The notes beneath the pieces are model-generated. The model did not search any database. It saw only the letters and a program-made list of their open reading frames with translations, and was not told the origin of the DNA. 59,175 nucleotides of DNA from an uncultured Clostridia bacterium (lineage in GTDB: Bacteria; Bacillota; Clostridia; TANB77; CAG-508), in the NCBI GenBank assembly GCA_963559365.1, contig CAUWKC010000006.1, forward strand, positions 1 to 59,175, written 5' to 3'. Positions 712 through 53,913 of the stretch are shown piece after piece; the stretch's first letter is position 1, and every line of letters starts with the position of its first letter. The position numbers were made by a program, and so were the translations under genes.

Positions 712-1338
712 ATGAAAGAAAAAGAAAAAGAACGATTAAAAGAACTAAAAAAAATAGAAAAAGAGTTATACCAAAAAGGATTTCAAAAAATAGCAGGAAT
801 AGACGAAGCAGGAAGAGGACCTTTAGCAGGACCAGTAGTAGTAGCAGGAGTTATCATGCCACAAGACTCTATGATAGAAGGAGTAAACGATTCAAAAAAA
901 GTATCAGAAAAAAAGAGAGAAAAATTATATGACTTAATATTAGAAGAAGCTATAAGTTATTCAGTAGCAATAATAGAGCAGGACACCATAGACGAAATCA
1001 ACATATTAAATGCAACCAAACAAGGAGTAACAGAAGTAGTTGAAGGATTTGAAACCAAGCCAGACTTAATAATAGTAGATGCTTTAAACCATATAAACAC
1101 AAAAGGAATACCATATGACTCAATAATAAAAGGAGATGCAAAATGTTATAACATAGCAGCAGCATCCATCATAGCCAAAGTAACAAGAGATAGAATAATG
1201 AGGCAATGGGACGAAATATATCCACAATACGGTTTTGCTACACACAAAGGATATGGTACTGCCAAGCACATAGAAGCCATTCGTGAATGTGGACTATGTC
1301 CAATTCACAGAAGAAGTTTTACAAAAAAATTCAATTGA
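712..1338 (+). CDS. rnhB: Ribonuclease HII
   Basis: GIDEAGRGPLAGPV, DSKK, KGD, IAAASIIAKVTRD, HRRSF motifs. Confidence 0.97.
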   Translation: MKEKEKERLKELKKIEKELYQKGFQKIAGIDEAGRGPLAGPVVVAGVIMPQDSMIEGVNDSKKVSEKKREKLYDLILEEAISYSVAIIEQDTIDEINILNATKQGVTEVVEGFETKPDLIIVDALNHINTKGIPYDSIIKGDAKCYNIAAASIIAKVTRDRIMRQWDEIYPQYGFATHKGYGTAKHIEAIRECGLCPIHRRSFTKKFN

Positions 1339-1360
1339 GACAATGGGGACGGTTCCAAAA
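1336..1360 (+). repeat. Single (partial) REP copy, family 1, overlapping the rnhB stop codon
   Basis: TGAGACAATGGGGACGGTTCC resembles the TGAGACAAYAGGGACAGTTC unit flanking the RAYT. Confidence 0.65.
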
Positions 1361-8983: not shown

Positions 8984-9248
8984 ATGGATTTAAATATAAT
9001 TACATATTTGACTTGTATTTGCTTGCTTTTTATATTTGGAAGAATTTTTATAATTCCTTTAAAAAAAATATTAAAATTAATTATGAATTCTATTTTTGGT
9101 GGCATTTGTATTTATGTAATTAATTTAATTGGTTCTAGCTTTGGATTTCATATTGGTTTAAATTTTTTTACAAGTATTTTAATTCGGATTATTAGGATTA
9201 CCAGGTGCTGTTTGCTTAATTGTTGTAAAACTATTAATTGGAACATAA
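8984..9248 (+). CDS. bofA: Pro-sigmaK processing inhibitor BofA (87 aa after +1 shift at CGG 9185-9187)
   Basis: ...HIGLNFFTSILI then ATT-C-GGA-TTA-TTA-GGA-TTA-CCA-GGT gives conserved GLLGLPG and ends at TAA 9248 before a terminator. Confidence 0.85.
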
Positions 9249-9277
9249 AAAACAACCGCTATATACGGTTGTTTTTG
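9247..9277. terminator. Bidirectional terminator bofA/glmS
   Basis: AAAAACAACCG-ctatata-CGGTTGTTTTT. Confidence 0.85.
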
Positions 9278-9279
9278 TA

Positions 9280-15203: not shown

Positions 15204-16548
15204 TTAATAAATTTCTAATTGTTGAGAGAAGAATTTATTAGTTTTTGAGGTATATAAATTAACATTTGAATTTTTCTTTATAATTTTTCGTACTTCCCAT
15301 AAACCTAATCCAGTATGATTTTCTTTTTCAGTATTTCCCTTTTCAAATATTGTTTCTGTATTAATTTCTTTATTTTTGTAGGTGTTTTCAATTATTATTA
15401 GTTGTCTATTGTTTTTATTATCATTTCTAAAAGTAATATTAATAATTTTTTCATTACATTCTAAGCTAGCTTCAATGGCATTATCTAATAAAATACCTAA
15501 AATTCTAGCAAATTCATAAATTTTCATTTTTAGAGTTTGTAAATCTAGTAAAAATGTCATATTAATTTTTATATTTTTAGATTCTGCTTGATGATATTTA
15601 TTAGTAAGTAGATTATATATACCGTGGATTGTTTACGATTTCAGGATTTAATAAATATAAATTGTTTACTTTTTGACAATCATCTTCTAGCTGTAAGTAA
15701 TAGTTTTTTAAACCTTCTATATCCTCTGTACGGATATATCCACCAATAGTTGTAACAATATTATCAAAATCATGTTTAAAACCGCGAACATTATCATGTA
15801 AAATATGTAAAGTTTTGTTATACTCTTCTGCACTTTCTAATTTTTTAGTTGTTAGTGTTAATTTCATTATACTAGTTAAGCTATATACACTAATTATAAA
15901 ATAAGCTAGTAAGGATATAAAACTTAAAAAAGTAATAATCATTGGTAAAGTGTCTACATAATAAAATAGAATAAAAGTTTGTACAATTAAAGCAATTATT
16001 CCAAAAATGAAATTTGATACTAGAGTCATTTTACTTTTTTTATCTATGTCATCATAGAAAGTTATTTGTAAATTTCTATGATTGAATATTAAAATTAATA
16101 AATAAGTAACTAAATATATTGTCATTGTATAAAGAAAATTATAAATAGGGATATTAGCTAATTCATCAGTTGTTATATGGAAGATATTTAAGTAAGGACT
16201 TAAAATCAAACTACCTATTAAAGCAATTATCAATAAAGAAGATACAGTAGAAATTAAAGTTTTTAAAATAGATGCTTTAAAGATAAATAATGCTAATATA
16301 AAGAAAATAAGGTAATTAAAAAATAAATTATATGGTTCAGGAACAATGTAGCTAACAATAATAGTTGGAATAGTGTATAAAACAACATAGTATATTTTAC
16401 TTATCTTAGTTGATTGGATGTTTAAAATAGTAAGAAATAACATCATCGATAAATAAACTTCCAAAAAAGTTAAAGGCAACATAATTAATTCTGTTATAAA
16501 TTCATTTGAAGTAGTTAATAAACTCCATATATTGTTAAAAATTTCCAT
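15204..16548 (-). CDS. agrC: AgrC-type sensor histidine kinase (447 aa after +1 shift at CGG 15624-15622)
   Basis: TM region, H-box RGFKHDFDN, then CCA-C-GGT-ATA-TAT joins NNPGIYNLLTNK to the GHKL domain (GILLDNAIEA, HTGLGL). Confidence 0.88.
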
Positions 16549-17245
16549 AATTTTTTAAAACCTCCATAAAATCTCTTTTGTATTTAGGACCAATATCACA
16601 GGTATTACCATCTTTAAAAGTAATTGTACCAGAAACAGGTTCCACATCTTTAATCTGACTTAAATTAGCAATATAAGATTTATGACATCTAATATAAGTA
16701 TCAGGTAATTTATCTTGAAACTTATTAAAAGAGCTATAAGTATCATAATCACGAGAAGAAGTATGGAAAACCAACTTCATTCCATCTCTTTTAACATATT
16801 GAATTTCAGCTTCATCAATAATAGTATTTTTATTATCAATTTTAATATATCGTTTACTTACCTCATTAGCATCTTCAAATAAACGATTTACAGTTTCCTC
16901 TAATCGGTCATAAGTAATTGGTTTAGCAAGATAATCAAAAGTCTTGTATTTATAAGCAACCATAGCATACTCCAGATGTCCAGTTGTAAAAATAATATAA
17001 GAATTTTTCTTTCTCTTTCTAATTTCTTCAGCTAACTCTAAGCCACTTTTGTTAGACTTTAAATTAATATCCAATAATAAAACATCAACAACATTATTAT
17101 CAATATAACTTAAAATATCATCACTATTATCTGATTTAAACACGACAGAAGCATTATAATTATTTTTAGTAAAAATAGATTCTAACATTTTTCCTAATCG
17201 GTCTAAAATATTTAAATTATCATCGCAAATTACGAAATTTAGCAT
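16535..17245 (-). CDS. agrA: AgrA-type LytTR response regulator
   Basis: MLNFVICDDN, LLDI, FDYLAKP receiver domain; IRCHKSYIAN LytTR domain; ORF track start 17254. Confidence 0.92.
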   Translation of the reverse strand: MLNFVICDDNLNILDRLGKMLESIFTKNNYNASVVFKSDNSDDILSYIDNNVVDVLLLDINLKSNKSGLELAEEIRKRKKNSYIIFTTGHLEYAMVAYKYKTFDYLAKPITYDRLEETVNRLFEDANEVSKRYIKIDNKNTIIDEAEIQYVKRDGMKLVFHTSSRDYDTYSSFNKFQDKLPDTYIRCHKSYIANLSQIKDVEPVSGTITFKDGNTCDIGPKYKRDFMEVLKNYGNF

Positions 17246-17560
17246 GTTACACACCCTTTATTTTTATGATAGAAAAAAATATGGAAACAAGGTTTGACAA
17301 AATATATCAAATTACCTTAATTTTCCAGACATACTAACAATATAATCTAAAAAGTGAAACTTGTCAATAGTAATTTACAAAATTATCCAGTTAGTAAAAC
17401 GATTAATATTACTAAAACACGCCGTAAGAACTTAAAATATGACAAAGAAAAATAAACTTAAAATGTTATATAAAAAGGTAGATATAAAAAATACAAAAAC
17501 TTAAAAATAAAAAATGTTGAATTATAAAAAAAAATAGTATATAATAAAAACACAAATAAT

Positions 17561-17700
17561 TGAGACAACAGGGACAGTTCAAATTTGTCTCACGAATTTA
17601 GTAGATTAAAGTTGAAAAATGTCGAAACACTTTACTTAAGCAAAATTCGACAAAAAAAGATAAAAAAGTGAGACAAATTTGAACTGTCCCTGTTGTCTCA
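17561..17700. repeat. REPIN-like doublet (family 1) upstream of pdaA
   Basis: 33-bp perfect inverted arms TGAGACAACAGGGACAGTTCAAATTTGTCTCAC at 17561-17593 and 17668-17700. Confidence 0.9.
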
Positions 17701-17791
17701 TCTTCAAAAACTGGCTTGCCATTTTTATTAATATAGTTATTTTTTTAAAGATAAAAACATAAATATTATAAAGAAATGGGGAGGAATTAGA

Positions 17792-18208
17792 ATGAAGAAA
17801 GTTATAGTAATAACATTGTTGATGATATTAGTTTTTTCTTTAAGTGTTATTGAAATGAATCATAAAGATAATACAGCTATAAAAACTAATGTAGAAAATG
17901 GTATAAGTAACAAAAAAATAGGATGGGGTATAAAAAGAAACAATAATCATGAACAGCCAGATGTAGGAACTTATAATAAAAAAGTATTAGAAGAAAATGA
18001 AGGAATTTGTTTAGGAAATTCAGAAAAAAAAGTAATTTATTTAACTTTTGATCAAGGATATGAAGCTGGTTATACACCACAATTACTAGAAATATTAAAA
18101 GAAAATCAAATAAAAGCAACATTTTTTTTAACAGCTCACTATGTAAATACACAACCAGATTTAGTTAAACAAATGATAAACGAAGGGCATATTGTAGGAA
18201 ATCATACA
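17792..18208 (+). CDS. pdaA: PdaA-like polysaccharide deacetylase, 5' part (interrupted by recombinase element)
   Basis: IYLTFDQGYEAGYT, KATFF, MINEGHIVGNHT; homology stops at att core. Confidence 0.88.
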
Positions 18209-18278
18209 CCTAACGCTTTAATGTCTTAAATATTTATAACATACTAATAAATAATTAATAAAATGTGGAGAAAGAGAT

Positions 18279-18887
18279 ATGAAAAATATAAGTAAAATAA
18301 TAACAAATATAGTAAGAATCAGTATAATATTAATTGGATTTTTATTGATTTTTAAACAAGAATATAAAAATATAGGAATTTTAGTATTAACTTTTTTATT
18401 AACTTTTTATGATAAAGTAGTAGAAAGAATTTTAAAAATAAAATTAGATGAAAAACTAAAAATTTCATTAATACTATTCATTTTTGGTGCACAATGTTTA
18501 GGTACAGTTTTAGGATTTTATCATAAATTTTTATGGTGGGATACAATGCTACATACTTTATCTGGAATTATCTTCTTTTTAGTAGGACAAGAAGTCATAA
18601 AACAATTAGATAGTAGTAATAAATTAAACAGTAAAATAATTATAGCATTTGGAATTTGTTTTTCTTTATCAACAGGAGTTATTTGGGAAATATTTGAATT
18701 TTTAGTTGATAGTTTTTTAGGGCAAAACATGCAAGTTGCTAGAGATGGTATAGGAAGAGAGGCTCTTATGGATACAATGGTAGATTTAATTTCAGTAACT
18801 GTGGGAACATTAATTATAGTAGTTATTAAAGTTTTAAAAAATAAAATAAAAAAAGGAGAAAAAAATGAAAAAAGCAAGAACATATAG
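18279..18887 (+). CDS. DUF2238-like integral membrane protein
   Basis: WWDTMLHTLSG, WEIFEF, DTMVDL motifs, multiple TM segments. Confidence 0.7.
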   Translation: MKNISKIITNIVRISIILIGFLLIFKQEYKNIGILVLTFLLTFYDKVVERILKIKLDEKLKISLILFIFGAQCLGTVLGFYHKFLWWDTMLHTLSGIIFFLVGQEVIKQLDSSNKLNSKIIIAFGICFSLSTGVIWEIFEFLVDSFLGQNMQVARDGIGREALMDTMVDLISVTVGTLIIVVIKVLKNKIKKGEKNEKSKNI

Positions 18888-19665
18888 AAAAAGAGATTTA
18901 ACAGTATATATAGTATTAAGAATATTAGTAATTATAACAATTGTAGTACAAGCACTTAGAGGAAATTTTGAAAATGTATTTTTAGGAATATTAACCTTGA
19001 TTTTATTTACAATTCCTTCAATTATAGATAAAAAATTAAATATAAAATTACCAAATGCATTAGAAACAGTTATATTACTTTTTATCTTTTCAGCAGAAAT
19101 ATTAGGAGAAATACAAAATTTTTATGGAATTTTTAAATTTTGGGATACTATGTTACATACAATTAATGGGTTCTTATGTGCAGCAATTGGATTTTCTCTT
19201 ATTGATATTTTAAATAGAAGCCCTAAATTTCATATGAAAATGTCACCAATTTTTGTAGCTTTAGTAGCATTTTGTTTTTCAATGACAATAGGAATTTTAT
19301 GGGAATTTTTTGAATTTGGTTCAGATATTTTTTTCAGAACAGATATGCAAAAAGATAGAATTACATCATCAGTATCTTCTGTGTTAATAAATGAAAAAGG
19401 AGAAAATGTGCCTGTTAAGATAGATAATATAAAAGAAACAACTTTAACTTATGAAGAAAATGGATACAATAAAGAATTGGTAATTAAAGGTGGTAATTTA
19501 GATATAGGGCTAAAAGACACTATGAAAGATTTAATAGTAAATTTTCTTGGGGCAATAGTATTTTCTATTATAGGACTTTTATACATAAAAAATAGAGATG
19601 AATATAAATTTGCAGAAAACTTTATTCCTATCATTAAAGATAAAGAAAAGGATGTAGACGATTAA
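18865..19665 (+). CDS. DUF2238-like integral membrane protein (paralogue of upstream gene)
   Basis: FWDTMLHTING, WEFFEF, DTMKDL. Confidence 0.7.
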   Translation: MKKARTYRKRDLTVYIVLRILVIITIVVQALRGNFENVFLGILTLILFTIPSIIDKKLNIKLPNALETVILLFIFSAEILGEIQNFYGIFKFWDTMLHTINGFLCAAIGFSLIDILNRSPKFHMKMSPIFVALVAFCFSMTIGILWEFFEFGSDIFFRTDMQKDRITSSVSSVLINEKGENVPVKIDNIKETTLTYEENGYNKELVIKGGNLDIGLKDTMKDLIVNFLGAIVFSIIGLLYIKNRDEYKFAENFIPIIKDKEKDVDD

Positions 19666-19682
19666 ATTAGAAGGAGATTATT

Positions 19683-20789
19683 ATGGCAAATATATTTGAT
19701 TATATAAAATGGAGAGGAGATTTAAGCTTACAAAAAGATGAATTCAATGAAATAGATAATTTAATTTTATCGAGATTTTCATATTTTCCTTTTGATAAAA
19801 TAATAAAAGAAAATGAAGTAGTGACAATAAAAGAATTAAGCAAGAGATTTCAAGAAAATGATGTAAAAAAGATGGCTATCCTATGGAAAGATGACATTAA
19901 GCTATTTCCACAAATGGGAATGTCAAAAAGATTTGGGGAAATGAGAGCAACCAAATATGTAAATAAAATAAATATAGAACAAGAAAAGCAATTTTCAGCT
20001 ATAACAATAATAATGCCAGATGATACAATATATGTATCATATAGAGGTACAGACAATACAGTAATAGGATGGAAAGAGGATTTTAATATAGCATTTAGAA
20101 GTCATATACCATCTCAATTAGATGCACTTAAATATTTAGAAGAAATAGCTGAAAAATATCCTAATAAACTAAGAATAGGGGGACATTCAAAAGGTGGAAA
20201 TCTTGCAGTATATGCATCAGTATTTGCAAATAAAAATTTGAAAGATAGAATAATAAATATTTATAATAATGATGGTCCAGGATTTAATGATGAAATAATT
20301 GAAAAAGAAGAATATAAAGAAATCATAAAAAAAGTAAACACATATATACCACAAGATTCTATATTTGGAAGATTATTAAATCATGAAGAAAAATATACAG
20401 TTGTAAAAAGTACTCAAAAAGGTCTTATGCAACATGATTTGTACAGTTGGCAACTGATAGGTAAGAAATTTATATCTTTAAAAGAAGTTACAAATGGAAG
20501 TAAGTTTATAGATAAATCAATAAAAGACTGGTTTGAGCAAATAGATATAAATCAGAGAGAGCAAGTGATAGATATAATTTTTCAAATTATAAATACTACA
20601 AAAATAGAAACAATTTTAGATTTAAAAAATAACTGGTTTTCAAACGCAAGAATAATATTAAATTCATATAAAATGATTGATCCAGAAAGTAAAAAGATGA
20701 TTTTAGAAACTTTATCTGCTTTATTTAAAATTGTAAAAGATAACTTTTTGGAAGAACATCCAAGGTTAAAAATAAAAGAAAAAAATTAA
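19683..20789 (+). CDS. DUF2974/Mbeg1-like alpha/beta hydrolase
   Basis: YRGTD..IGWKEDF, GHSKGG nucleophile elbow, DGPGF, QHDLYSW. Confidence 0.88.
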   Translation: MANIFDYIKWRGDLSLQKDEFNEIDNLILSRFSYFPFDKIIKENEVVTIKELSKRFQENDVKKMAILWKDDIKLFPQMGMSKRFGEMRATKYVNKINIEQEKQFSAITIIMPDDTIYVSYRGTDNTVIGWKEDFNIAFRSHIPSQLDALKYLEEIAEKYPNKLRIGGHSKGGNLAVYASVFANKNLKDRIINIYNNDGPGFNDEIIEKEEYKEIIKKVNTYIPQDSIFGRLLNHEEKYTVVKSTQKGLMQHDLYSWQLIGKKFISLKEVTNGSKFIDKSIKDWFEQIDINQREQVIDIIFQIINTTKIETILDLKNNWFSNARIILNSYKMIDPESKKMILETLSALFKIVKDNFLEEHPRLKIKEKN

Positions 20790-20798
20790 TGCTATTAA

Positions 20799-21293
20799 AT
20801 GTTATGGGAGATAATGATGAATTTTTTAATGTCTTTAATATTTTGTATAATATTAATTTTAACAATTTTTATACCATATATGATTTTTGTGGCAATATTT
20901 GCTGTGCTAATTTGGGCAATAACTACAAAAAAGATTGCTAGTAAAGCACTTAAAACTTTAATAATTATAGTTGTTTTACTTTATGGAACTATAATAATAG
21001 GTAGCTTTAAAACTGAAACACCTGATAATTTATATACAAAAATTAAAGAAATGAATGATAGTAAAAGTCTTATAGGATTAAATTCAGAAGAAGTTATCAA
21101 ATTATTAGGAAAGCCAGAAGATGAATATAATAGTAGGGACAATGAAAAAAATTATGTATATTATGCAGGGGAAATACTAAAAAAATCATATTGGGGCTAT
21201 TCTTATACTCATGAATATTATAAAATTAATATATCTTTTGATGAAAATGATAAAGTAGAAGATACGGTAATGAAACTGCTTCCTTCAAGTTGA
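20799..21293 (+). CDS. Hypothetical membrane protein
   Basis: Two N-terminal TM segments, GLNSEEVIKLLGKP repeat-like motif; start may be 20814. Confidence 0.6.
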   Translation: MLWEIMMNFLMSLIFCIILILTIFIPYMIFVAIFAVLIWAITTKKIASKALKTLIIIVVLLYGTIIIGSFKTETPDNLYTKIKEMNDSKSLIGLNSEEVIKLLGKPEDEYNSRDNEKNYVYYAGEILKKSYWGYSYTHEYYKINISFDENDKVEDTVMKLLPSS

Positions 21294-21431
21294 ACAATAG
21301 TAAAATGATGATAAGCAGACGTGGTTTTGCCACCAATTTTTATGAATATTTAAATATTTATTGTTAGATGATATATGAAAGAAAAATAATATTAGATAAA
21401 AGCAATACAATGGAGGGAGAAGAAACAAAAT

Positions 21432-22533
21432 ATGGCGTATTCGTTGGAATTAAAAGAGAAAGTATTAATGAAAATAGAAAATGGAGAAAAAATAAAAGAT
21501 ATTTCAGATGATATAGGAATTAGTAAGTCAACATTATACAAATGGGTAAAAGAAATGGAAGATAAAAATATAACTGTTCAAAAGCAAAAAGTATTTATGA
21601 AGAAGAGAATAATATGTATATAGAAGAAAAAATGACAAGTAAAGAACAATCAAAAAAAATAAAAACTTTAATAAAAAGAAGACAATTTCAAGAAGCAAAG
21701 GAAATAGGAGAAAAATTTATAGATAATGCACCAATACAATCGCAAATGGTAACAATAGCAATAAGAGAAGGCGATAAAGAAGAAACAAAAGAATACTGGA
21801 AAGAAGAAAAACAACAAACAATCAAAAATATAATAAAGACAAAAATATATTGGGATAAAATAACTGGCGAAGTTGTAGACGAAATAAACAATAATAATAA
21901 TGGATTAACGGAATATGAGAAAACAATAATGATGTTAGCAATATGTCAAAAAAACAATTAAGTAAAAGAATAGTACAAATCATATCGTCTACTAAAGGAA
22001 AGTTTACACATGAACAACAGAAGGTGCTTTCACAAATTTTAGATAAGAGTAAATCAAAAAGAAAAACTATTTTTGATATGACATTTTATGATGAAATTTT
22101 AAAATGGAATTTTGATGAAAAATTGAATCAACAATATATTGAAGAAGAAAGAGAAGAAATAAGAAAGAAGAAAATGGAAGAAGAAAAAAGAGAAGAAATA
22201 AGAAAGAAAAAAGAGGAAGAAGAAAAAAGAGAAGAAATAAGAAAAAGAAAAGTGGGAGAAGAAACAGGGAAAATAAAAGAATATAAACAAAATATAAAAA
22301 AAGATGTGAAAAATAAAAAAATTAGTTATATATTAAATTATTTTGATAAGCTGAAACTGAAAGTGTATTGTGAAATGCAATCAGTAAATTATAAAAAACA
22401 AAAAAATGCTATTAAAAAATGGGATGAAATAGAAAATGTAATAGAAAAACTAAAAAATAATCCTAATGATATAGAAGTGGAAAAATTGTATGCAAAAATT
22501 AAAATGATAACAGAAAATGATTTAGAAAAATAA
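21432..22533 (+). pseudogene. HTH-containing gene fragmented by two frameshifts near A-runs
   Basis: N-terminal MAYSLELKEKV...GISKSTLYKW HTH; overlapping ORFs 21432-21623, 21614-21961, 21943-22533. Confidence 0.55.
22141..22250 (+). repeat. Three-copy ~36-bp coding tandem repeat
   Basis: GAAGAAGAAA(AA)AGAGAAGAAATAAGAAA units encoding EEEKREEIRKKK. Confidence 0.75.
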
Positions 22534-22737
22534 TATTGATTAAAATTATATGAATTTATTATAAATAAAATTAAAGATAATGATATGTAACTAAAGGGGA
22601 GAAGATATAAATCAATGTCAAAATTATTCAATGTAGCAGACAGGTTATGGTGGTGGCATAAAAAATAAAGTGGAATTATTAAAATTAGAAGGAAATGATA
22701 TGAGTGAATTTTTTACTCCTAAAAGAGGTACAGTATT

Positions 22738-23280
22738 ATGAAAAGGTGCAAATGGTGTAATTTAAAAAATGAATTGTATGTAAAGTACCATGATAAAGAA
22801 TGGTGTAAGTTAAATTTAGAGGATAAATACTTATTTGAAATGCTAATATTAGAGTCTTTTCAAGCTGGACTTTCTTGGGAATGTGTGCTAAACAAAAGAG
22901 AAAGTTTTAGACAAGCATTTGATAATTTTGATATAGATATAATTTGTAATTATGATGATAATAAAATACAAGAATTATTACAAAATAAAAATATCATAAG
23001 AAATAAATTAAAAATAAAGGCAACTATAAATAATAGTAAAATTTTCAAAAATATACAAAGTCAATATGGTTCTTTTCATAATTATTTAAAAACATTTACG
23101 AAAGATACCATTATTTATGAAACAGATAAAACTACAAATGAGTTATCAGATACAATTTCAAAAGATTTACAAAAAAGAGGGATGAAATTTGTGGGTAGTA
23201 CAATAATTTATTCTTATTTACAAGCAATAGGAATTATATACTCACATGAAAAACAATGCTTTTTGTATAAAAATAGTTGA
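22738..23280 (+). CDS. tag: DNA-3-methyladenine glycosylase I
   Basis: RCKW, YHDKEW, LESFQAGLSW, IIRNKLKI, GMKFVG, H..C. Confidence 0.93.
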   Translation: MKRCKWCNLKNELYVKYHDKEWCKLNLEDKYLFEMLILESFQAGLSWECVLNKRESFRQAFDNFDIDIICNYDDNKIQELLQNKNIIRNKLKIKATINNSKIFKNIQSQYGSFHNYLKTFTKDTIIYETDKTTNELSDTISKDLQKRGMKFVGSTIIYSYLQAIGIIYSHEKQCFLYKNS

Positions 23281-23436
23281 AGTGACAAATTACAATTAAT
23301 ACTTTAAAGATATTAAGAAATTAATATCTCTTTTTTTATTCATTTCGATATGTTAAAACGTTTTTAATAATAGGAGTAATACTTTTAAAGATGAATTCAT
23401 AAAATTAAACAAAAACTTAAAAGGAGAAAAACTATT

Positions 23437-23553
23437 ATGAAAAACAAAGAAAACATAAATATTAAAATACAATATGGAGAGCAAGATTTAAAAGAAATAA
23501 TAGTAGAACTACTAAAGCAAAAATATATAGAATATATAACTATTTGCTCTTGA
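23437..23553 (+). CDS. Small protein (38 aa) directly upstream of recombinase; candidate directionality factor
   Basis: Not in ORF track; AAGGAG RBS; MKNKENINIKIQYGEQDLKEIIVELLKQKYIEYITICS. Confidence 0.5.
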   Translation: MKNKENINIKIQYGEQDLKEIIVELLKQKYIEYITICS

Positions 23554-23562
23554 AAAAGGAGA

Positions 23563-25173
23563 GTGATAAAAATTAATCAAGTAAATAGTTATAGAAATGT
23601 AAGAGTAGCCAAATACATACGTTTATCTCGTGAAGACGGAGATGACCGAGAAAGTGAAAGTGTAGAAAATCAAAGAGATATTATAGACAATTATATACAA
23701 GAGCATAAAGAATTAATAGAAGTAGGAGAATATGTTGATGATGGATATACAGGTACAAATTTTAATAGACCGGGATTTCAGAAAATGTTAAAAGATATAG
23801 AAAATGAAAAAATAGATTGTATCATAACAAAAGATTTATCAAGATTTGGAAGAGATCATATAGATACAGGTTATTACTTAGAAAGGTATTTGCCAACAAA
23901 TAATATTAGATACATAGCAATTGGAGACAATGTAGATACATTAAAATCAGATGGATTGCAGTTTTTAACATTTAAGCTTAGCTTTAATGATTATTATGCA
24001 CAAGATATATCAAATAAAATAAAAAGTGTAAAACAAAGAAAAATAGAAAAGGGAGAATATCAAGCAGGAATACCACCATATGGATACAAAAAAGATACAG
24101 AGCAAAAAAATCATTTAATACCAGATGAATATAGTTCACAAATTGTAAAAGAAATATTTGAAATGTATGTAAAAAAAGGAATGTCAACAATTAAAATTGC
24201 CGATGAGTTAAATAAAAGAGAGATAGAACCACCAGCAATATATTTAAAAATTCCAACATATATGAAAAGAAAAAGTGCAAATCCTAGTGGAAAATATGTA
24301 TGGTTAAGGGCACAAATAGGAAAAATTTTAAGAAATGAAGTTTATTTAGGAAATGTAGTTGGAAGAAAATTTCAAAAAGTTAGCCATAAAATAGCAAAAG
24401 TAAGATGTACCAAAAAAGAAGAACACATTGTGCTAGAAAATATGCATGAGCCAATTATAGACATTGAAACTTGGAATAAGGCACAAGAAAAATTAAATGG
24501 ATATACAAAAACAAGAAAAAGAAAATATGACCACATATTAAAAGGAGTAGTATATTGTGGAGAATGTGGCAATAAAGCAACTTTAAGATGTAGAGAAGAA
24601 AAAAGAAAAAACGGAAATGTATGGAAAGCAACATATTTTATTTGTTCGAAAAGAAATAATTATAGTGGATTATGTGATAACAAACAAATATCAGCAAATT
24701 TAATTGAAGAAGTCATTATTAGTAAAATAAAAGAAGAAATAAAAAAAATAAATTTATCAGAAAAAGAAATAAAAGAAATATATGAACAAGCCAAAAAAGA
24801 ATCTAAAAGCAAATGTAACCTATTACAAACAAAACTACAAGAATTAAAACATACATTACAAAATATAGAAAATGCAATTGAAGAAATTTATCAAGATAAA
24901 ATAAATAAAATAATACAAGTAGAAGACTTTAAAATAATTTATGAAAAAAAACAAAAAGAAAGAAATAAAGTTATAGGAGAGATTAATAAAATAGAAAAAG
25001 AACTAAAAAATATTAATAATAAGCAACCAAAAATTGATTTTGAAGAAATAAAACAAATTACAGAAAAGTTCTTAAATATGAAGGAGCCTAATAAAATGAT
25101 ATTAGAAAAGTTAATCGAAAAAATTGAATTTGATAAAGATAAAAATATAAAAATTAAATTTAATTTTTTTTAA
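23563..25173 (+). CDS. Large serine recombinase (SpoIVCA/CisA-like)
   Basis: YIRLSRED catalytic Ser, DDGYTG..RPGF, KDLSRFGR, PYGY, Zn ribbon CGECG...C, coiled coil. Confidence 0.96.
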   Translation: MIKINQVNSYRNVRVAKYIRLSREDGDDRESESVENQRDIIDNYIQEHKELIEVGEYVDDGYTGTNFNRPGFQKMLKDIENEKIDCIITKDLSRFGRDHIDTGYYLERYLPTNNIRYIAIGDNVDTLKSDGLQFLTFKLSFNDYYAQDISNKIKSVKQRKIEKGEYQAGIPPYGYKKDTEQKNHLIPDEYSSQIVKEIFEMYVKKGMSTIKIADELNKREIEPPAIYLKIPTYMKRKSANPSGKYVWLRAQIGKILRNEVYLGNVVGRKFQKVSHKIAKVRCTKKEEHIVLENMHEPIIDIETWNKAQEKLNGYTKTRKRKYDHILKGVVYCGECGNKATLRCREEKRKNGNVWKATYFICSKRNNYSGLCDNKQISANLIEEVIISKIKEEIKKINLSEKEIKEIYEQAKKESKSKCNLLQTKLQELKHTLQNIENAIEEIYQDKINKIIQVEDFKIIYEKKQKERNKVIGEINKIEKELKNINNKQPKIDFEEIKQITEKFLNMKEPNKMILEKLIEKIEFDKDKNIKIKFNFF

Positions 25174-25198
25174 CATTAAGAAAATAGGAAATCATACA

Positions 25199-25582
25199 GT
25201 AAACCATAAAAGTATGCCAGAAATAACAGAAGAAGAAATAAGAACAGAAATAATGAACCTACACCAAACAATACAAGAAAAATTCAATTATGAAATGAAA
25301 TATATAAGACCACCAAAAGGAGAATATAGTGAAAAAACATTAAAAATTACTAACCAATTAGGATATAAAACAGTCATGTGGTCATTTGCATATGAAGACT
25401 GGAATGAAGACAAACAACCAGAAGAAGAAGCAGCTAAGAAAAAAATAATAGAAAATTTACATCCAGGAGAAATAATGTTACTACATGGAAATTCAAAAAC
25501 CAATACAAAAATATTAAACAATATTATAAAAGAAGCAAAAGCTATAGGTTATGAATTTAAATCACTTGAAGAATTCGAGTGA
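25199..25582 (+). CDS. pdaA: PdaA-like polysaccharide deacetylase, 3' part
   Basis: VNHKSMP, YIRPPKGEYS, MWSFAYEDW, HPGEIMLLH; joined protein is 266 aa. Confidence 0.88.
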   Translation, partial: VNHKSMPEITEEEIRTEIMNLHQTIQEKFNYEMKYIRPPKGEYSEKTLKITNQLGYKTVMWSFAYEDWNEDKQPEEEAAKKKIIENLHPGEIMLLHGNSKTNTKILNNIIKEAKAIGYEFKSLEEFE

Positions 25583-25707
25583 GACAACAGGGACAGTTCC
25601 AAAATGTCTCACAAATTGTGCTGAAAAAAGTCGAAAAAAGTAAAAAACAAGAAGCGACAAAAAATGACAAAAAAGTGAGACATTTTGGAACTGTCCCTAT
25701 TGTCTCA
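25580..25707. repeat. REPIN-like doublet (family 1) between pdaA and yqfC
   Basis: 33-bp inverted arms 25580-25612 and 25675-25707 with one mismatch; the left arm supplies the pdaA TGA. Confidence 0.9.
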
Positions 25708-25720
25708 GAAAGGAAGAGCA

Positions 25721-26011
25721 ATGAGAAAAAAACGAAGTGTTGGGAGTTATAGTAAGTTGGATAAGATATTGGAAATGCCTCAAGAGGTTTGTTCGGAAGT
25801 TCCTAAGATTGTTATTACAGGTTTTGATGAGATGATTATTGAGAATTTTAAAGGGATTTTAGAGTATGAGGAGTTTTTTGTTAGGATTAATACTCATATT
25901 GGTATTGTTAATGTTAATGGGTTTGATTTGAATTTGGAAAATATGACAAATGATGATATTAAAGTTACAGGGAAGATTGAGAGTGTGGATATGGAGAGAA
26001 TTACAGATTGA
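25721..26011 (+). CDS. yqfC: YabP/YqfC family sporulation protein
   Basis: LEMPQEV..PKIVITG..MIIENFKGILEY; upstream of yqfD; AAGGAAG RBS. Confidence 0.85.
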   Translation: MRKKRSVGSYSKLDKILEMPQEVCSEVPKIVITGFDEMIIENFKGILEYEEFFVRINTHIGIVNVNGFDLNLENMTNDDIKVTGKIESVDMERITD

Positions 26012-26025
26012 AAGGGTTTTGGTAA

Positions 26026-27210
26026 ATGCTGATTAAAAGGGTGTTTAGTTATATTATAGGTTATTTGCAAATTACTATAGAGGGATATTATATTGAGAGG
26101 TTTATTAATTTATGCCGTAATTATAAAATTGATATTTGGCATTTAAAGCGAAAAGAGGAAATTAAGTTAGTGGCTAGGATAGGTGTGCATGATTTTAAGA
26201 AGGTCTGCCAAATAGCTAAAAAAACACGTTGTAAAGTGAAAATAGAGAGGAAAAGGGGATTGCCTTTTTTCTTAAATCGATATAAAAAAAGAAAGATATT
26301 TTTTCTGTTTTTATTGTTTATATTGATTTTGATTTTCTTATCTTCTAATTTTGTATGGAATGTGGATATTCGAGAAGAAAATGGTAAAGTTCTGGAAAAT
26401 ATAGAAAATGATATTAAAAATGCTGGATTAGTTATAGGAACGTGGAAAGAAAAAGTAAATAGGAAAGAGATTATTAATAAAATTCGATTGGAAAGAAATG
26501 ATATTGCTTGGATGGGGATAGAATTGAAGGGAACTAATGCTATTGTGAAAATAGTTAAAGCTGAAGAAAAACCAGAAATTATTGATGAAGGAGAATATTG
26601 TAGTATTGTTTCGGATAAAGTAGGAATTATTACAAAAATTAATGCTCAAAGTGGAACTGCTAATGTGAAAGTAGGAGATACAGTTAATGTGGGAGAAACG
26701 TTGATAAATGGTTGGATGGAAGGAAAATATACTGGGATTCGATATGTTCATGCTAAAGGAGAAGTTGAAGCAAAGGTGTGGCATACAAAATATGTAAATG
26801 TACCATATCAATCAAATGAAAGAATAGAAACAGGGAAAGTAGAAAATCAATATACAATAAAATTAAATAATTTTAAAATAAATTTGCATAAAGGGGTTTC
26901 AAAATTCAAAATTTATGATACAATAGAAACGGAAAACAAAATGAGGTTATTTTCGGACTTTTATTTGCCAATTTCAATTCTAAAAGTAACCAATAAAGAA
27001 ATAGAAGAAAAACCAAAAAATTATGAAATAGAAGAAGCTAAAAACATAGGGATACAACAATTAGAAAAAGAATTAGAACAAGAAATTGATAACAAAGAAG
27101 CAATTGTGGGGAAAAATATCAATACTTATGAAAAAGAAGATAGTATTGATGTATATGTCACATACGAAGTTTTAGAAAATATAGGGACAAATGAGAAAAT
27201 TGTATTTTGA
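26026..27210 (+). CDS. yqfD: Sporulation protein YqfD
   Basis: GY..IEG..IERFINLC, GLPF, TM segment, VKVGDTV..GETLING, HAKGEV.AKVW. Confidence 0.92.
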   Translation: MLIKRVFSYIIGYLQITIEGYYIERFINLCRNYKIDIWHLKRKEEIKLVARIGVHDFKKVCQIAKKTRCKVKIERKRGLPFFLNRYKKRKIFFLFLLFILILIFLSSNFVWNVDIREENGKVLENIENDIKNAGLVIGTWKEKVNRKEIINKIRLERNDIAWMGIELKGTNAIVKIVKAEEKPEIIDEGEYCSIVSDKVGIITKINAQSGTANVKVGDTVNVGETLINGWMEGKYTGIRYVHAKGEVEAKVWHTKYVNVPYQSNERIETGKVENQYTIKLNNFKINLHKGVSKFKIYDTIETENKMRLFSDFYLPISILKVTNKEIEEKPKNYEIEEAKNIGIQQLEKELEQEIDNKEAIVGKNINTYEKEDSIDVYVTYEVLENIGTNEKIVF

Positions 27211-48845: not shown

Positions 48846-48878
48846 AAGAGAAAAAGAAAAATAAGGAAGGTGAAAAAA

Positions 48879-49406: not shown

Positions 49407-49413
49407 AACCAAA

Positions 49414-49444
49414 TGAGACATTAGGGACAGTCCAAAGTGTCTCA
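49414..49444. repeat. Single REP hairpin (family 1) after rplQ, may act as terminator
   Basis: TGAGACATTAGGGACAGTCCAAAGTGTCTCA followed by TTTTT. Confidence 0.8.
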
Positions 49445-49869: not shown

Positions 49870-49995
49870 TTTTGGGACGGAGAAGAAAACGACGGGATTT
49901 TTTGGGACGGAGAAGAAAATGACCATATGGATTTCAATCATATCATTTTCTTCTCCGTCCCAAAAAATCCCGTCGTTTTCTTCTCCGTCCCAAAA
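49870..49995. repeat. REPIN-like palindrome, family 2
   Basis: 53-bp perfect inverted arms (49870-49922, 49943-49995), each with two TTTGGGACGGAGAAGAAAA units. Confidence 0.9.
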
Positions 49996-50082: not shown

Positions 50083-52312
50083 TTGAGAATGGAAATAACA
50101 GGACAAATAGAAGCGATTATTTATAAAAATGAAATAAATAGTTATACTATAGCAGAATTTGAAACAGAAGATGAAAGCACAACAGTAGTGGGTTATTTAC
50201 CATTTATAAATGTAGGAGATACATTAAGATTAGTAGGAAAATTTGTTGAACACAAAGAATATGGTCGACAATTTAAAATAGATACTTTTGAAAAGCTAAT
50301 GCCACAGACATTAGGAGCTTTAGAAAGATATTTAGCTAATGGAAATATAAAAGGAATAGGAGAGGCTTTAGCAAAAAGAATTGTAAACAAATTTGGAGAA
50401 GAAACCATTCATATTTTTAAATATGAGCCAAATAGATTAGCAGAAATAAAAGGAATCTCTCCTAATCGAGCTTTAGAAATGGCAGAAAATTTTGTGCAAA
50501 ACTGGGAAGTATGGCAAATCGTAGGATTTTTAGAGAGGTTTGGCATTGGTGCAGAACATGCAAAAAAAGTATTTGATTTGTTAGGAAGTAATGCAATTGA
50601 AGAAATAGAAGCAAATCCATATCTTTTAATTGATATAGCAAGAGGAGTTGACTTTAAGCAAATAGATAAAATGGCATTAAATTTAGGAATGGCATATGAT
50701 AACAGTAAAAGAGTAACAAGTGGTATAAAATATGGCCTAATTAGAAGTACTTACAACGGACATGCTTGTGTTTTAAAAACAAATTTAATTGAATTTGTTA
50801 TTAATCTTTTAGATGTTTCAACAGAAAATGTAGAAGATGGTCTAATTGAATTAAAAATGAAAGATGAAATTGTTATTGAAAAAAGAGAAGAAGAATATGT
50901 ATATTTATATGCATTTTTTCATGCAGAAGCAGAAATAGCAATTAGAATCAATAGATTACAAAAAGCTAAAAATATAAAAAAAATACAGAAAATAGAAGAA
51001 GAATTAAAAAAAGTAGAAGCTAATTCAAGTATAGAATTATCAGAAAAACAAAAAGAAGCTGTAAAACTAATTAATGAAAACAATGTAACAATTATTACAG
51101 GTGGTCCAGGAACAGGAAAGACAACAATTATCAAAAGTATTATAGATATCTATGAAGGAAAAGGAAAAAAAGTAGTATTATGTGCGCCAACAGGAAGGGC
51201 AGCTAAACGAATGACAGAGACAACAGGAAAAGAAGCATCAACATTACATCGATTATTAGAAATAGGAAAAATTGATGAAGACAGCTTATACAAAAGCACT
51301 TCTGATTATGATGGAACGCCAATAGATGGAGATTTTATTGTTGTAGATGAAATGTCAATGGTGGACATGTTCTTAATGAATTATTTATTAAAAAGTATCT
51401 ATCAAGGAACAAAATTAATATTAGTAGGAGATGAAGACCAATTAGCATCTGTAGGGCCTGGAAGCGTATTAAAAGATTTCATTCACTCTGAACAAATTGC
51501 AACTATACATTTAGACAAAATTTTCAGGCAAGCAGCAAAAAGTAAAATAATTATGAATGCCCATAGAGTAAATCAAGGAGAAACATTTTTAAAAAAAGAA
51601 GAAGCAGAAGAAATGAAAGAAGACTTCTTTTTTATAAAAGAATTATATCAAGAGCAAATGTTAGAACAAGTAATATCTCTATGTACAGGTAGACTACAAA
51701 AATATGGAAATTATGACTTTTTCCAAAATATGCAAGTACTAACACCAACAAAAAAAGGATTATTAGGAACAAAAGAATTAAACAAAGCATTGCAAGAAAA
51801 ACTAAATCCAAATCATGAAAACTTGCCAGAAAAAGCAAGTATGGGAGCTATCTATCGAGTAGGAGATAGAGTTATGCAAATAAAAAACAACTATGATATC
51901 TATTGGGAAAAGCAAGAAAATGGAAAAAAAGAAATAGGAACAGGAGTATTCAATGGAGAAATAGGAACAATAACAAAAATCGATGAAAAAGAAAAACAAA
52001 TAGAAATAAAATTTGATGACGAAAAAGTAGCAGAGTATGAATTTACCAATCTAGACCAAATCGAACACAGTTATGCCATAACAATCCATAAATCACAACG
52101 GAAGCGAATTTGACGTTGTAGTCATGGTATTACCACCAGCAGCGCCAATGTTAATAACTAGAAACCTGTTATACACGGGAATAACCAGAGCCAAAAAACT
52201 ATTAGTAATAGTAGGAATAGAAAAAGTTGTAGAACTCATGATACAAAATGTAGACATCAAAAAAAGAAACACAGGTTTAGAATTTAAAATGAGACAGTTG
52301 GGACAGTCCTAA
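50083..52312 (+). CDS. recD2: ATP-dependent RecD2-like helicase (~740 aa after +1 shift at CGG 52099-52101)
   Basis: GGPGTGKT, APTGRAA, DEMSM, GDEDQL; CAA-C-GGA-AGC-GAA-TTT restores YAITIHKSQGSEF and joins RNLLYTGITRAK. Confidence 0.92.
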
Positions 52313-53274
52313 TTTGTCTCACTTTTTTTGTCTATTCATGTCGTAATTAGTTATAATTTGCGACGAAAAAAAGTTTTAAATGAAGAAAATTTAAAAGAAG
52401 CTATTGAATTAACATAAAAAAGAAAGTATAATAATTAATAAAATAAGAAAAGGAGGAATTTTGTGCCTAGAAAAGCAAGAAAATTGTTGGGAAATATTAT
52501 TATACATAATATGGTTCAAGGAATTAATAAAGAGAAAATTTTTGACACTATTAAGCAAAAAGAAAAATATAAAAAGTTAATGAAAGAAGAAAGTGAAAAA
52601 CATCATACATTAATTATTGCTTACTGCATTATGGGGAATCATGTACATTTACTTACTTATTCACAAACCATAGATAATTTAAGTCAATTTATGAAAAGTA
52701 TTAATGGAAAATATGCACAATATTATAACAAATCCAATGAAAGAGTTGGTTATGTTTTTAGAAATCGATTTTATTCAAAACCAATTTTAGGTGAAGAACA
52801 ACTTTACAAATGTATCAAATATATTCACATGAATCCTGTAAAAGCAGGATTATGCTTAAAAGAAAATGATTATGAGTATTCTTCTTATCAAGAATATAAA
52901 GAAGAAAAAGAATTTATTAAATCTAAAATATATCAAATGATATTTCAATCTGATAAAAATTACTTTCAAAAATTAGAATCCACAAAATATGAATCTATGA
53001 AAATCCATAAAGAAAAATGTGATTTGAAAGAAATATTAAAAAAATATATTGCACAAAATAATATAGATTTTACTACAATACCTGTAGAACCTAAAGAAAT
53101 AAAAAAATTTATATTTTATTTAAAGACGAATGAATATGAATTTAGCAAAAATGAAATAGCAGAATTACTGCAAATAAGTAGAGCAAAATTATATAGAATA
53201 TTGAGAAAGGATGTCAAAAAATGATATTGTTCGACAAAAAAGTGAGACAAATTAGAACTGTCCCTATTGTCTCA
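52290..53274 (+). mobile_element. RAYT locus bracketed by ~42-bp inverted REP arms
   Basis: Arms 52290-52332 and 53233-53274 (TGAGACA.T.GGGACAGT.CTAATTTGTCTCACTTTTTT) around a Y1 HUH transposase. Confidence 0.85.
52463..53224 (+). CDS. REP-associated tyrosine transposase (Y1/HUH) with C-terminal HTH
   Basis: MPRKAR, YCIMGNHVHLL, GYVFRNRFYS, YIHMNPVKAG, YEYSSY. Confidence 0.9.
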   Translation: MPRKARKLLGNIIIHNMVQGINKEKIFDTIKQKEKYKKLMKEESEKHHTLIIAYCIMGNHVHLLTYSQTIDNLSQFMKSINGKYAQYYNKSNERVGYVFRNRFYSKPILGEEQLYKCIKYIHMNPVKAGLCLKENDYEYSSYQEYKEEKEFIKSKIYQMIFQSDKNYFQKLESTKYESMKIHKEKCDLKEILKKYIAQNNIDFTTIPVEPKEIKKFIFYLKTNEYEFSKNEIAELLQISRAKLYRILRKDVKK

Positions 53275-53913
53275 TTATTTTATCCACCGACTTGTGGTAT
53301 TTGTGGTAAGGTTAGTTCGAATTTTTTGTGTAATAAGTGTAAGTTATTATTGGATAAAGAGATGGTGTTAGGTTTAGAGAGTGGATTGGATTCTAAATTT
53401 TATTTTCAAGAATTTTTATATCTATTTTCATATCAGGGAATAATAAGAAAGATGATTTTGGATTATAAGTTTAATGATAAGTCGTATTTGTTTAGGTGTA
53501 TTGTGAATTTTTTGTTAAATAGTGAATTTTTATTTGAATTTTTGCAATCTTATGATAAAATAATACCAGTTCCGATTAGTAAGAAGAGGTATAAGGAAAG
53601 AGGTTATAATCAAAGTGCTTTGATTGCTAAAGGGATACAAAGAGATATGGCGATACATTTAAAATATGTAGATGATTGTATTTTTAAGGTTAAGGATATT
53701 ATTGAACAAAGTAAGTTAAATAAAGAGCAAAGACAAGATAATATAAAAAATGTGTATGTTTTGAATAATAATAAAATTAGTGAATTACAAAATAAGAAAT
53801 TATTATTAGTTGATGATGTTTTTACAACGGGAAGTACGGTAAATGAATGTTGTAGAATTTTGCAAAAAGCAAAACCTGAAAGAATAGGAGTTTTGGTATT
53901 GGCAAAAGATTAA
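53221..53913 (+). CDS. comF: ComF family protein (Zn finger plus PRTase)
   Basis: YPPTCGICG...C..C, PVP...RGYNQS, LLVDDVFTTGST; N-terminus encoded by REP arm so start uncertain. Confidence 0.9.
   Translation: MILFDKKVRQIRTVPIVSLFYPPTCGICGKVSSNFLCNKCKLLLDKEMVLGLESGLDSKFYFQEFLYLFSYQGIIRKMILDYKFNDKSYLFRCIVNFLLNSEFLFEFLQSYDKIIPVPISKKRYKERGYNQSALIAKGIQRDMAIHLKYVDDCIFKVKDIIEQSKLNKEQRQDNIKNVYVLNNNKISELQNKKLLLVDDVFTTGSTVNECCRILQKAKPERIGVLVLAKD

Follow-up and report, generated by a model that had tools for sequence, protein, structure and literature searches.

Can a short mobile repeat alter the silent sites of the genes beside it, and if so, on which side and over what distance? This question is raised by a 59,175-nucleotide stretch of DNA, referred to below as the window, from an uncultured Clostridia bacterium of the CAG-508 lineage. 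The window is one entire contig (C6) of its source genome (G000; 1.39 Mb, 27% G+C, 57 contigs). At positions 25580-25707, it contains a 128-bp doublet of repetitive extragenic palindromic (REP) sequences, composed of two inverted 33-nt REP arms and a 62-nt spacer. Doublets of this kind are known as REPINs (REP doublets forming hairpins), and this repeat family is designated F1. An earlier note on this DNA described a mirror-symmetric halo of codon bias centred on REP elements, and attributed it to repeated nicking by a REP-associated tyrosine transposase (RAYT) followed by resection or error-prone resynthesis. We found that the halo is real and genome-wide in G000; its shape and its likely origin differ in several respects from that description.

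Genes were called with our own open reading frame and codon-score caller (1332 genes, 89% coding), and the genome mean of G+T at third codon positions (G+T3), 0.425, served as the baseline. Gene identities were checked with Pfam for the C-terminal part of pdaA (polysaccharide deacetylase), yqfC (YabP family), yqfD, comF (phosphoribosyltransferase with a zinc ribbon), rnhB, rplQ and recD2. Immediately downstream of the REPIN, the third positions of yqfC (25721-26011) comprise 51 T, 28 G and 18 A, giving a G+T3 of 0.82. The hand counts reported previously for this gene were exact: 8 GAG versus 3 GAA, six Gly codons with no GGA (4 GGG, 2 GGT) and zero C-ending codons. The fading G/T bias described for the 5' parts of yqfD and comF was also recovered, with G+T3 of 0.66 in codons 1-125 of yqfD and 0.48 in the remainder, and of 0.74 at 53281-53700 of comF and 0.52 in the remainder. 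Genes upstream of arms were, as claimed, rich in A/C-ending codons: G+T3 was 0.22 in rnhB, 0.27 in the C-terminal part of pdaA, 0.21 in rplQ and 0.28 in the final 200 codons of recD2. Farther upstream of the REPIN, a serine recombinase gene showed a bias that fell back with distance (0.34 in codons 361-537, 0.35 in codons 181-360 and 0.41 in codons 1-180).

We then pooled third positions over the genome by distance outward from the TGAGACA end of each F1 arm. Genes reading away from the arms had G+T3 of 0.60-0.65 over 0-500 bp and reached the baseline by about 1.2-1.4 kb, and genes reading toward the arms had G+T3 of 0.24-0.27 and were back at the baseline by about 1.5-1.9 kb. Expressed as baseline-corrected G+T excess on the outward-reading strand at 0-600 bp, the 5' side of F1 arms had a mean of +0.166, and 87 of 95 arms were positive (Wilcoxon p 5.5e-16). 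As a control we took 485 intergenic gaps lying more than 2.5 kb from any element; their 970 sides had a mean of -0.005 (standard deviation 0.084). The plot of skew against distance at all copies, which the earlier note had proposed as a check, thus came out in favor of the halo. The excess was also evident without gene calls, at all positions (+0.074, positive at 78 of 91 arms). Corrected for gene orientation, the third-position excess had a plateau of +0.16 to +0.19 out to about 400 bp and a midpoint at 743 bp, and the bootstrap interval took in zero from about 1.3-1.4 kb.

The converse approach, starting from composition, led to the same elements. Among 120-codon windows with G+T of at least 0.70, 34 of 49 adjoined an arm of the right polarity (geometry would give 7.0%), as did 44 of 51 windows with G+T of at most 0.18 (12.2% expected). 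Some extreme windows with no assigned arm adjoin divergent arms missed by the pattern, e.g., on contig C4 near 34473. A low-threshold scan for skewed segments returned 531 segments, 430 of them not beside an F1 arm; it was too noisy because gene-to-gene codon bias dominates, and was superseded by the extreme-window test.

The halo is not centred on the REP. On the 3' side of F1 arms the excess was +0.032 (34 of 54 positive), and the inner side of singlets was at the baseline, i.e., the halo of each arm lies on its 5' side only. Mirror symmetry, as previously proposed, holds for inverted doublets, where it follows from two one-sided halos, and does not hold for the single arm. Solo and paired arms were equally effective (0.166 and 0.165). 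Two solo arms in the window illustrate this polarity: outward and inner G+T were 0.81 and 0.40 at the arm at 49414, and 0.74 and 0.46 at the arm at 1336. Each F1 arm is a polar anchor, with about 0.75 kb of silent-site drift 5' of the strand carrying RTAG-GGGAC. No positive excess was seen at 8 of the 95 arms, including the right arm at 17700. In this doublet (17561-17700), the left arm has a halo in a minus-strand response-regulator gene (16535-17254, G+T3 0.68); beside the right arm (17701-18229), the N-terminal part of pdaA has a G+T3 of 0.44. A lone detected arm on contig C19 (region 9154-9776; arm at 9757-9776, minus strand) had strong skew on both sides, with 0.78 outward and 0.74 on the inner side for a gene that reads away from it; the pattern may have overlooked a degenerate partner, or else the hairpin works in both directions.

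The strand that gains G and T when read outward has the polarity of a leading strand leaving an origin, of the non-template strand of an outward transcript, and of a strand displaced or exposed downstream of a nick. Transcription outward from the REP, acting via non-template damage or transcription-coupled repair, would accordingly give the observed polarity. However, the REPIN contains no promoter-like site: two such sites occur in 25400-25900, both outside the element, and 1.5 are expected. The highly expressed ribosomal-protein cluster has G+T3 below average (0.370 versus 0.425), and the halo is equally strong at sites where an outward transcript would have to run antisense through the 3' end of the gene upstream. 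Gene orientation had no influence on the halo (+0.195 for genes reading away, +0.151 for genes reading toward the arm). With the promoter scan at chance level and G+T low in the ribosomal-protein cluster, we rejected transcription as the cause and regard it as very improbable. A proxy for the replication strand had no influence either: the excess was 0.160 where the motif strand of the arm lay on the G-rich, gene-rich strand of its contig and 0.177 where it did not. Because the halo is the same in both orientations relative to the G-rich strand, models based on Okazaki priming or on the lagging strand only are not favored.

Judged from their sequences, the repeats belong to a RAYT system, as single REP hairpins and as REPIN doublets, given that F1 arms bracket a gene that matches Y1_Tnp and nearly reaches the cut-off of REP_Tyr_transpos. 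Its predicted product (253 aa) matched Pfam Y1_Tnp with an E value of 2.6e-11 (44.1 bits, cut-off 23), contains HVH and YIHMNP, and scored 75.9 bits with the NCBIfam model REP_Tyr_transpos, just below the cut-off of 80; the transpos_IS200 model gave just 23.7 bits (cut-off 55), and no PDB sequence matched at E <= 0.01. G000 has three RAYT genes and one IS200-type transposase gene, and each RAYT gene is bracketed by inverted copies of its own family: F1 (C6), F2 (C9) and F3 (C16). In all of these families, GGGAC follows an xTxG tetranucleotide and lies in a hairpin loop. Allowing up to 4 mismatches, we found 97 F1 arms in the 1.39-Mb genome, arranged as 24 doublets (mostly 107-155 bp) and 49 singlets. 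F1 shows the traits of REPs and REPINs, namely a short imperfect palindrome, many extragenic copies and inverted doublets with a spacer.

Position-wise conservation of F1 arms begins sharply at the T of TGAGACA. The RTAG (n=95) is A in 54 and G in 32 arms at position 7, T in 72 at position 8, A in 71 at position 9 and G in 95 at position 10. It sits within the outer stem, right before GGAC, and not at the foot of the outer hairpin. The arm at 25580 was predicted to fold with the stem GTGAGACA/TGTCTCAC (-8.1 kcal/mol, z -2.64), and the whole doublet at 25580-25707 into a single long hairpin (-36.2 kcal/mol, z -11.9). The exact F1 pattern had 62 matches in G000 and 1-6 matches in 5 of 18 congeners, and there was no match in 12 genomes sampled from other families of the order; F1 is thus nearly species-specific. 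The TGA of the left arm of the REPIN (25580-25582) is the stop codon of pdaA. The same is true of the upstream gene in 28 of the 97 arms, and in 8 more the stop is 3 bases off, implying that F1 arms abut or replace gene ends.

Do other repeat families carry a halo? In addition to G000, which was analyzed whole, we sampled two further species of the genus, G055 (390 kb; the nearest species sampled, with YqfD 78% identical, assembly 77% complete) and G046 (398 kb), as well as 1.2 Mb of Escherichia coli K-12 (NC_000913). In G000, the 5'-side excess of the two other RAYT-linked families was +0.061 for F2 (53/71, p 2.6e-6) and +0.066 for F3 (8/11, p 0.067), with nothing on the 3' sides of either. 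In G055, family Gb, which flanks the only RAYT detected there, gave +0.113 and +0.094 (10/11) and was the only halo family; no RAYT was found for Ga (32 copies), Gc, Gd, Ge (F1-like) and Gf, and none of these had a clear halo within 600 bp. G046 has five RAYTs, each linked to a family: H1 gave +0.127 (10/11) and +0.111 (11/12), H2 +0.070 and +0.120 (5/5), H4 (F1-like) +0.045 and +0.038, the halo of H3 was weak, and H5 (n=3) had none. Inverted arms of the own family flank the RAYT for Gb and for H1-H3 and H5; the H4 locus is cut by a contig end and only same-orientation arms are visible.

For the 195 classical REPs in the E. coli sample, a genome with a RAYT, the flank lying 5' on the GTAG strand gave excesses of -0.017 and -0.019. 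On their 3' side, a value of -0.048 was observed at 0-300 bp (19/74 positive), a figure that carries no gene-end control. The polarity of the halo was constant across families, always on the 5' side of the GGGAC strand, and it is shared by all three RAYT families of G000. The halo therefore accompanies some RAYT-linked families of this genus and not REPs or hairpins in general; hairpins per se are ruled out as the cause by the halo-free Ga, Gc, Gd, Ge and Gf and by the E. coli REPs. In this small sample, presence of a RAYT looks necessary, and it is not sufficient.

The changes are concentrated at silent sites. In genes reading away from F1 arms, at 0-250 bp, G/(A+G) at two-fold purine sites was 0.36 versus a background of 0.098, and T/(C+T) at two-fold pyrimidine sites was 0.935 versus 0.84. 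Four-fold sites were A 0.374, C 0.012, G 0.159 and T 0.455 (background A 0.593, C 0.040, G 0.042 and T 0.325). Genes reading toward the arm showed the complement, with G/(A+G) of 0.038, T/(C+T) of 0.546, and four-fold sites of A 0.700, C 0.114, G 0.028 and T 0.158. Codon positions 1 and 2 shifted by just 0.02-0.04. Since silent sites shift strongly and the first two positions barely, the halo in host genes bears the signature of a mutation bias that protein-level selection has filtered, and is not itself a product of such selection.

To polarize the changes, silent sites were compared with 19 species representatives having no element at the REPIN locus. In yqfC, 21 of 29 ancestral A were changed (13 A>G, 8 A>T) and 0 of 15 ancestral T. 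In yqfD, the corresponding counts were 11/31 A and 1/16 T in codons 1-130, 20/53 and 0/13 in codons 131-260, and 6/43 and 4/24 in codons 261-394. Within 1.1 kb, 52 of 113 ancestral A had thus changed, to G and to T, as opposed to 1 of 44 T, and A>C was absent on the yqfC-yqfD side (0 of 58 A-site changes). In the pdaA part, across the REPIN, 3 of 13 T sites had become C and 4 of 42 A sites had changed, which is the expected direction in small numbers. Ancestral C sites are too few in yqfC and yqfD, and the C>T component rests on the genome-wide figures. In summary, on the strand reading 5'->3' away from the arm, A is replaced by G or T and C by T, and T and G are spared. The halo-versus-background odds ratio was 1.4-6.9 in all 16 neighbor contexts; a similar shift in every context, with no strong neighbor preference, argues against a motif-specific deaminase.

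If the element is responsible, orthologs at element-free loci should lack the bias. The earlier note had named a shared bias in such orthologs as the finding that would speak against it, and at yqfC the bias was absent from them. In 20 representatives of the genus that lack a GTCCC or GGGAC element ahead of yqfC, the G+T3 of this gene had a mean of 0.415 (range 0.26-0.53), compared with 0.82 in G000; in 9 representatives with such an element the mean was 0.597 (range 0.50-0.76). Over 70 element-free loci, including loci on metagenome contigs, the mean was 0.443 (standard deviation 0.068). The 80 metagenome-contig loci were used for composition only, as the best YqfD identity among them was 71% and silent sites were too diverged. 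Relatives reach at most 78% protein identity, and all of these measures are biases rather than rates. Among relatives, some elements show a strong effect and others none.

These data also bear on the idea that no local mutagenesis occurs, and that REPs were inserted at pre-existing composition switches, or that the pattern reflects foreign flanks, an assembly chimera or codon usage at gene ends. Highly expressed genes are indeed somewhat A/C-ending, and many weak A/C-rich segments lie far from any arm. However, element-free gaps show no composition switch (mean -0.005, n=970), the yqfC bias is missing from element-free orthologs, the flanking genes are conserved ones with housekeeping roles, the change weakens gradually with distance and is limited to silent sites, and a contig from an independent sequencing run is identical over 25297-26255. 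Taken together, this leaves the idea next to no probability.

The sequences flanking the REPIN were also compared among public runs. The stretch is present in 20 of the 24 runs listed, from 10 studies, labeled as gut, feces or metagenome of animals. Four runs (X6, X13, X15 and X17) were compared with the stretch, with differing letters at 561 places. The REPIN at 25580-25707 was present in the strains of all four, and no REP-free allele of the locus was found among them. The contig of X13 spans 25297-26255 across the REPIN with 0 differences, and those of X15 and X6 stop within the arms of the REPIN.

We consider it somewhat better than an even chance (roughly 0.55) that the halo is a mutational footprint left, over evolutionary time, by strand-specific excision and resynthesis that recur at the REP and are probably started by its RAYT. 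The cognate RAYT, a HUH tyrosine nuclease, would nick the strand that carries the motif, at the hairpin's 5' foot, leaving a free 3'-OH on the flank. The nicked flank strand might then be unwound or degraded backwards for some hundred bases and re-copied from the complementary strand. As the flank strand would be removed and re-copied each time, the outward-reading strand would always be the template. Lesions typical of exposed or unrepaired DNA on this strand would become permanent, deamination of C as C>T, deamination of A as A>G and depurination of A as A>T, and lesions on the replaced strand would be erased, a scheme that fits both directions of the shift at two-fold sites. The relevant chemistry has been described for E. 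coli TnpAREP: according to PMC8266576, the enzyme binds the folded REP strand, cuts 5' or 3' of the hairpin, and generates a Tyr-5'P linkage and a free 3'-OH, and the complementary iREP is not bound or processed. The evidence that we count for excision and resynthesis includes the polarity and one-sidedness of the halo, its tract-like profile, the silent-site spectrum, the weak context, the independence of orientation and the links to RAYTs.

Several observations weigh against this explanation. The mechanism is drawn wholly from composition, and its dependence on RAYT is correlative. A RAYT is not sufficient, given the weak halo of H4 and the absence of one at H5 in G046 and the weak halos of F2 and F3 in G000, and 195 E. 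coli REPs have no halo despite a RAYT. RAYTs of the halo-free families in G055 were possibly missed in an assembly that is 77% complete. Age of a family could explain the strength of its halo as well as activity could (halo versus arm divergence, rho -0.20, p=0.052). The large A>T share is unlike plain deamination. Finally, when yqfC at 87 related loci was set against the 3' part of its own yqfD, the corrected bias was 0.073 with a GTCCC element upstream (n=16) and 0.043 without (n=70), with no significant difference (p=0.54) among loci that are kin and not independent.

In an alternative explanation, the REP primes low-fidelity synthesis. The outward strand would be nicked at the element boundary and the element-side 3'-OH extended outward, as nick translation or as abortive displacement of the rolling-circle type, and misinsertions opposite T and G would yield A>G, A>T and C>T. 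This variant is the one nearest to the 'error-prone resynthesis' of the earlier note. It predicts the same polarity, one-sidedness and tract length, and the specific loss of A, to G as well as to T, looks like what miscopying of a template T would give; according to PMC8266576, HUH enzymes leave a 3'-OH able to prime. It needs, however, a cut on the strand opposite RTAG-GGGAC or 3' of the complementary hairpin, and the iREP is neither bound nor cleaved in the E. coli system (PMC8266576). No error-prone polymerase is linked to the elements; one Y-family polymerase gene occurs elsewhere in G000. We regard primed synthesis as unlikely.

A bias of nick-directed mismatch repair is a further alternative. 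A persistent nick at the REP would direct MutS/MutL-dependent excision always to the same strand within about 1 kb, and replication errors on the un-nicked strand would be fixed and those on the nicked strand erased. The length of the halo is on the order of mismatch-repair excision tracts, and G000 has MutS and MutS2 genes. The equilibrium is in fact shifted both ways, with A>G up on one strand and down on the other. Repair-induced flanking mutagenesis is known in human cells (PMC3999860). Mismatch repair hardly explains A>T, which makes up nearly half of the yqfC and yqfD changes, and we find this alternative improbable.

With respect to the mechanism first suggested for this locus, REPs and REPINs with cognate RAYTs, a silent-site footprint and RAYT-linked halo families in three species were borne out; the polarity expected for a resected tail and the generality of the effect were not. 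If simple 5'->3' resection left a 3' tail that was then damaged, the polarity would be the reverse of that observed, and this scheme was rejected. Resection fits the data only in the form of resynthesis errors on the resected strand, or of removal of the other strand. A broader and more tentative proposal, for which we see a minor chance, is that a RAYT-linked REP is a one-directional chromosomal start for DNA processing, the RAYT acting like a rolling-circle initiator or programmed nickase and about 1 kb of host DNA being repeatedly unwound and re-copied from one strand. If true, the skew of some hundred micro-replicons or repair tracts would be what we see as the halo, and REP/RAYT modules would act as polar mutators on a local scale, reshaping neighboring genes and at times damaging them.

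The elements themselves are of a known kind, and the halo is a new property of them, seen in three species of one genus. In open-access literature and bioRxiv, we found no flanking compositional or mutational footprint at REP, REPIN or RAYT elements. Systems of REPs or REPINs with a RAYT (TnpAREP) are described in PMC3116915, PMC3337134 and PMC5581495, which treat RAYTs as domesticated, single-copy, vertically inherited transposases. F1 resembles these systems in having a HUH/Y1 protein flanked by inverted REPs, short extragenic hairpins present in high copy as doublets and singlets, and a conserved xTAG tetranucleotide beside the recognized core. It differs in that its RTAG-GGGAC core lies in the loop of a larger 7-8-bp stem, and that G000 holds three RAYT/REP pairs simultaneously. 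REPs of E. coli K-12, with no halo at 195 copies, differ from F1 as well.

Other forms of strand-asymmetric mutation offer partial parallels. Leading strands carry a G+T excess, and in vertebrate mitochondrial DNA a gradient of A>G and C>T follows the time spent single-stranded. The halo shares with them the same two transitions on the strand running 5'->3' from the start, and the polarity of an origin. However, it extends over about 1 kb and not over a replichore, it is anchored to a mobile hairpin repeat found at some 100 genomic sites, it is independent of the replication-strand proxy and it has a large A>T component. Diversity-generating retroelements use reverse transcription of a template repeat to rewrite a defined variable repeat of about 100 bp, changing A to any base. 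Loss of A is dominant in both, but the halo has no template repeat, lacks A>C (0 of 58), includes C>T and affects unrelated housekeeping genes. Phase 2 of somatic hypermutation and repair-induced flanking mutations (PMC3999860) are forms of patch-repair mutagenesis around a nick or mismatch. Like the halo, patch repair gives strand-biased mutations at A:T within about 1 kb of a lesion via excision and resynthesis. Those systems are eukaryotic, somatic and set off by deaminated bases, whereas the halo is evolutionary, bacterial and located at a transposase recognition hairpin.

The activity of RAYTs in vivo has been hard to see. The halo would be a natural record of it, showing which side of the hairpin is processed, the length of the tract and the candidate strands. 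Mobile repeats would also alter the evolution of neighboring genes, as in yqfC, where 21 of 29 ancestral silent A were replaced and positions 1 and 2 shifted slightly. Codon statistics, detectors of horizontal transfer and gene finders will misjudge genes within halos; our own coding score was 7 for yqfC and 19 for comF, compared with 39-339 for window genes of similar or greater length. The elements and halos of the window are listed in Table 1.

Table 1. REP elements, the RAYT unit and halos in the window (positions are those of the whole stretch)
Feature	Position	Strand	Description
Left F1 REP arm	25580..25612	+	TGAGACA-RTAG-GGACAG...TGTCTCAC hairpin; inverted repeat I10, 33 nt, 97% complementary
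Right F1 REP arm	25675..25707	-	Inverted copy of left arm (I10)
Right halo of REPIN	25708..26450		+ strand poor in A and C at silent sites; yqfC and 5' part of yqfD (26026-)
Left halo of REPIN	24640..25579		+ strand rich in A and C at silent sites; pdaA part (25214-25582) and 3' end of serine recombinase gene
F1 REPIN	17561..17700		Inverted repeat I5; halo left only
Solo F1 arm directly after rplQ	49414..49444	+	Hairpin -8.8 kcal/mol; halo left only, ~48870-49413
Solo truncated F1 arm after rnhB (712-1338)	1336..1355	+	Halo in rnhB
F1 RAYT with its REP arms (REPtron)	52290..53274	+	985-bp unit; RAYT gene 52463-53224 between inverted F1 arms
F1 REPtron arms	52290-52328 and 53236-53274	+ and -	Inverted repeat I4, 41 nt, 93% complementary
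Right halo of F1 REPtron	53275..53700		In comF (53221-53913), G+T3 0.74
Left halo of F1 REPtron	51514..52289		3' part of recD2; outward-strand G+T 0.74 vs 0.575 expected
F2 REPIN (GGGACGGAG loop)	49870..49995		Inverted repeat I1, 53 nt, 100% complementary; fold -68.3 kcal/mol

Many contigs of G000 terminate in arrays of the F2 repeat (TTTTTGGGACGGAGAAGRAAA, period of about 30 bp), e.g., C19, C24, C28, C29, C39-C42, C46, C49, C50, C52 and C56. These arrays are thus a major source of assembly breaks, and the copy number of F2 is underestimated. The sole match in G000 to the uracil-DNA glycosylase family (PF03167) is at C2:65367-65806 and is fragmented over frames with stop codons; its best open frame has 111 aa and covers profile positions 23-101 of 141, and an F1-like element lies nearby at C2:65904-65919. 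Uracil-DNA glycosylase is possibly broken in this organism, which would bear on C>T mutagenesis.

Two genes of the window are interrupted. recD2 is broken by an extra C near 52099 (52090-52125), inside a conserved ...HKSQ|GSEFD... stretch; read through a +1 shift, it has a normal C-terminus that ends within the F1 arm at 52312. The extra C is about 190 bp from the arm, within the halo, and either a real frameshift or a sequencing error is possible. pdaA is split, with residues 3-146 of the full-length ortholog corresponding to 17783-18214 and residues 140-271 to 25184-25579. The insert of about 7 kb (18215-25183) ends with the large serine recombinase gene (23563-25173), which encodes Resolvase, Recombinase and Zn_ribbon_recom domains. 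The insert resembles the intervening elements that interrupt sporulation-related genes and are excised during sporulation. Within this insert, a gene at 21943-22533 contains 3-4 tandem 39-bp repeats (22114-22269) that encode a Glu/Lys/Arg-rich stretch.

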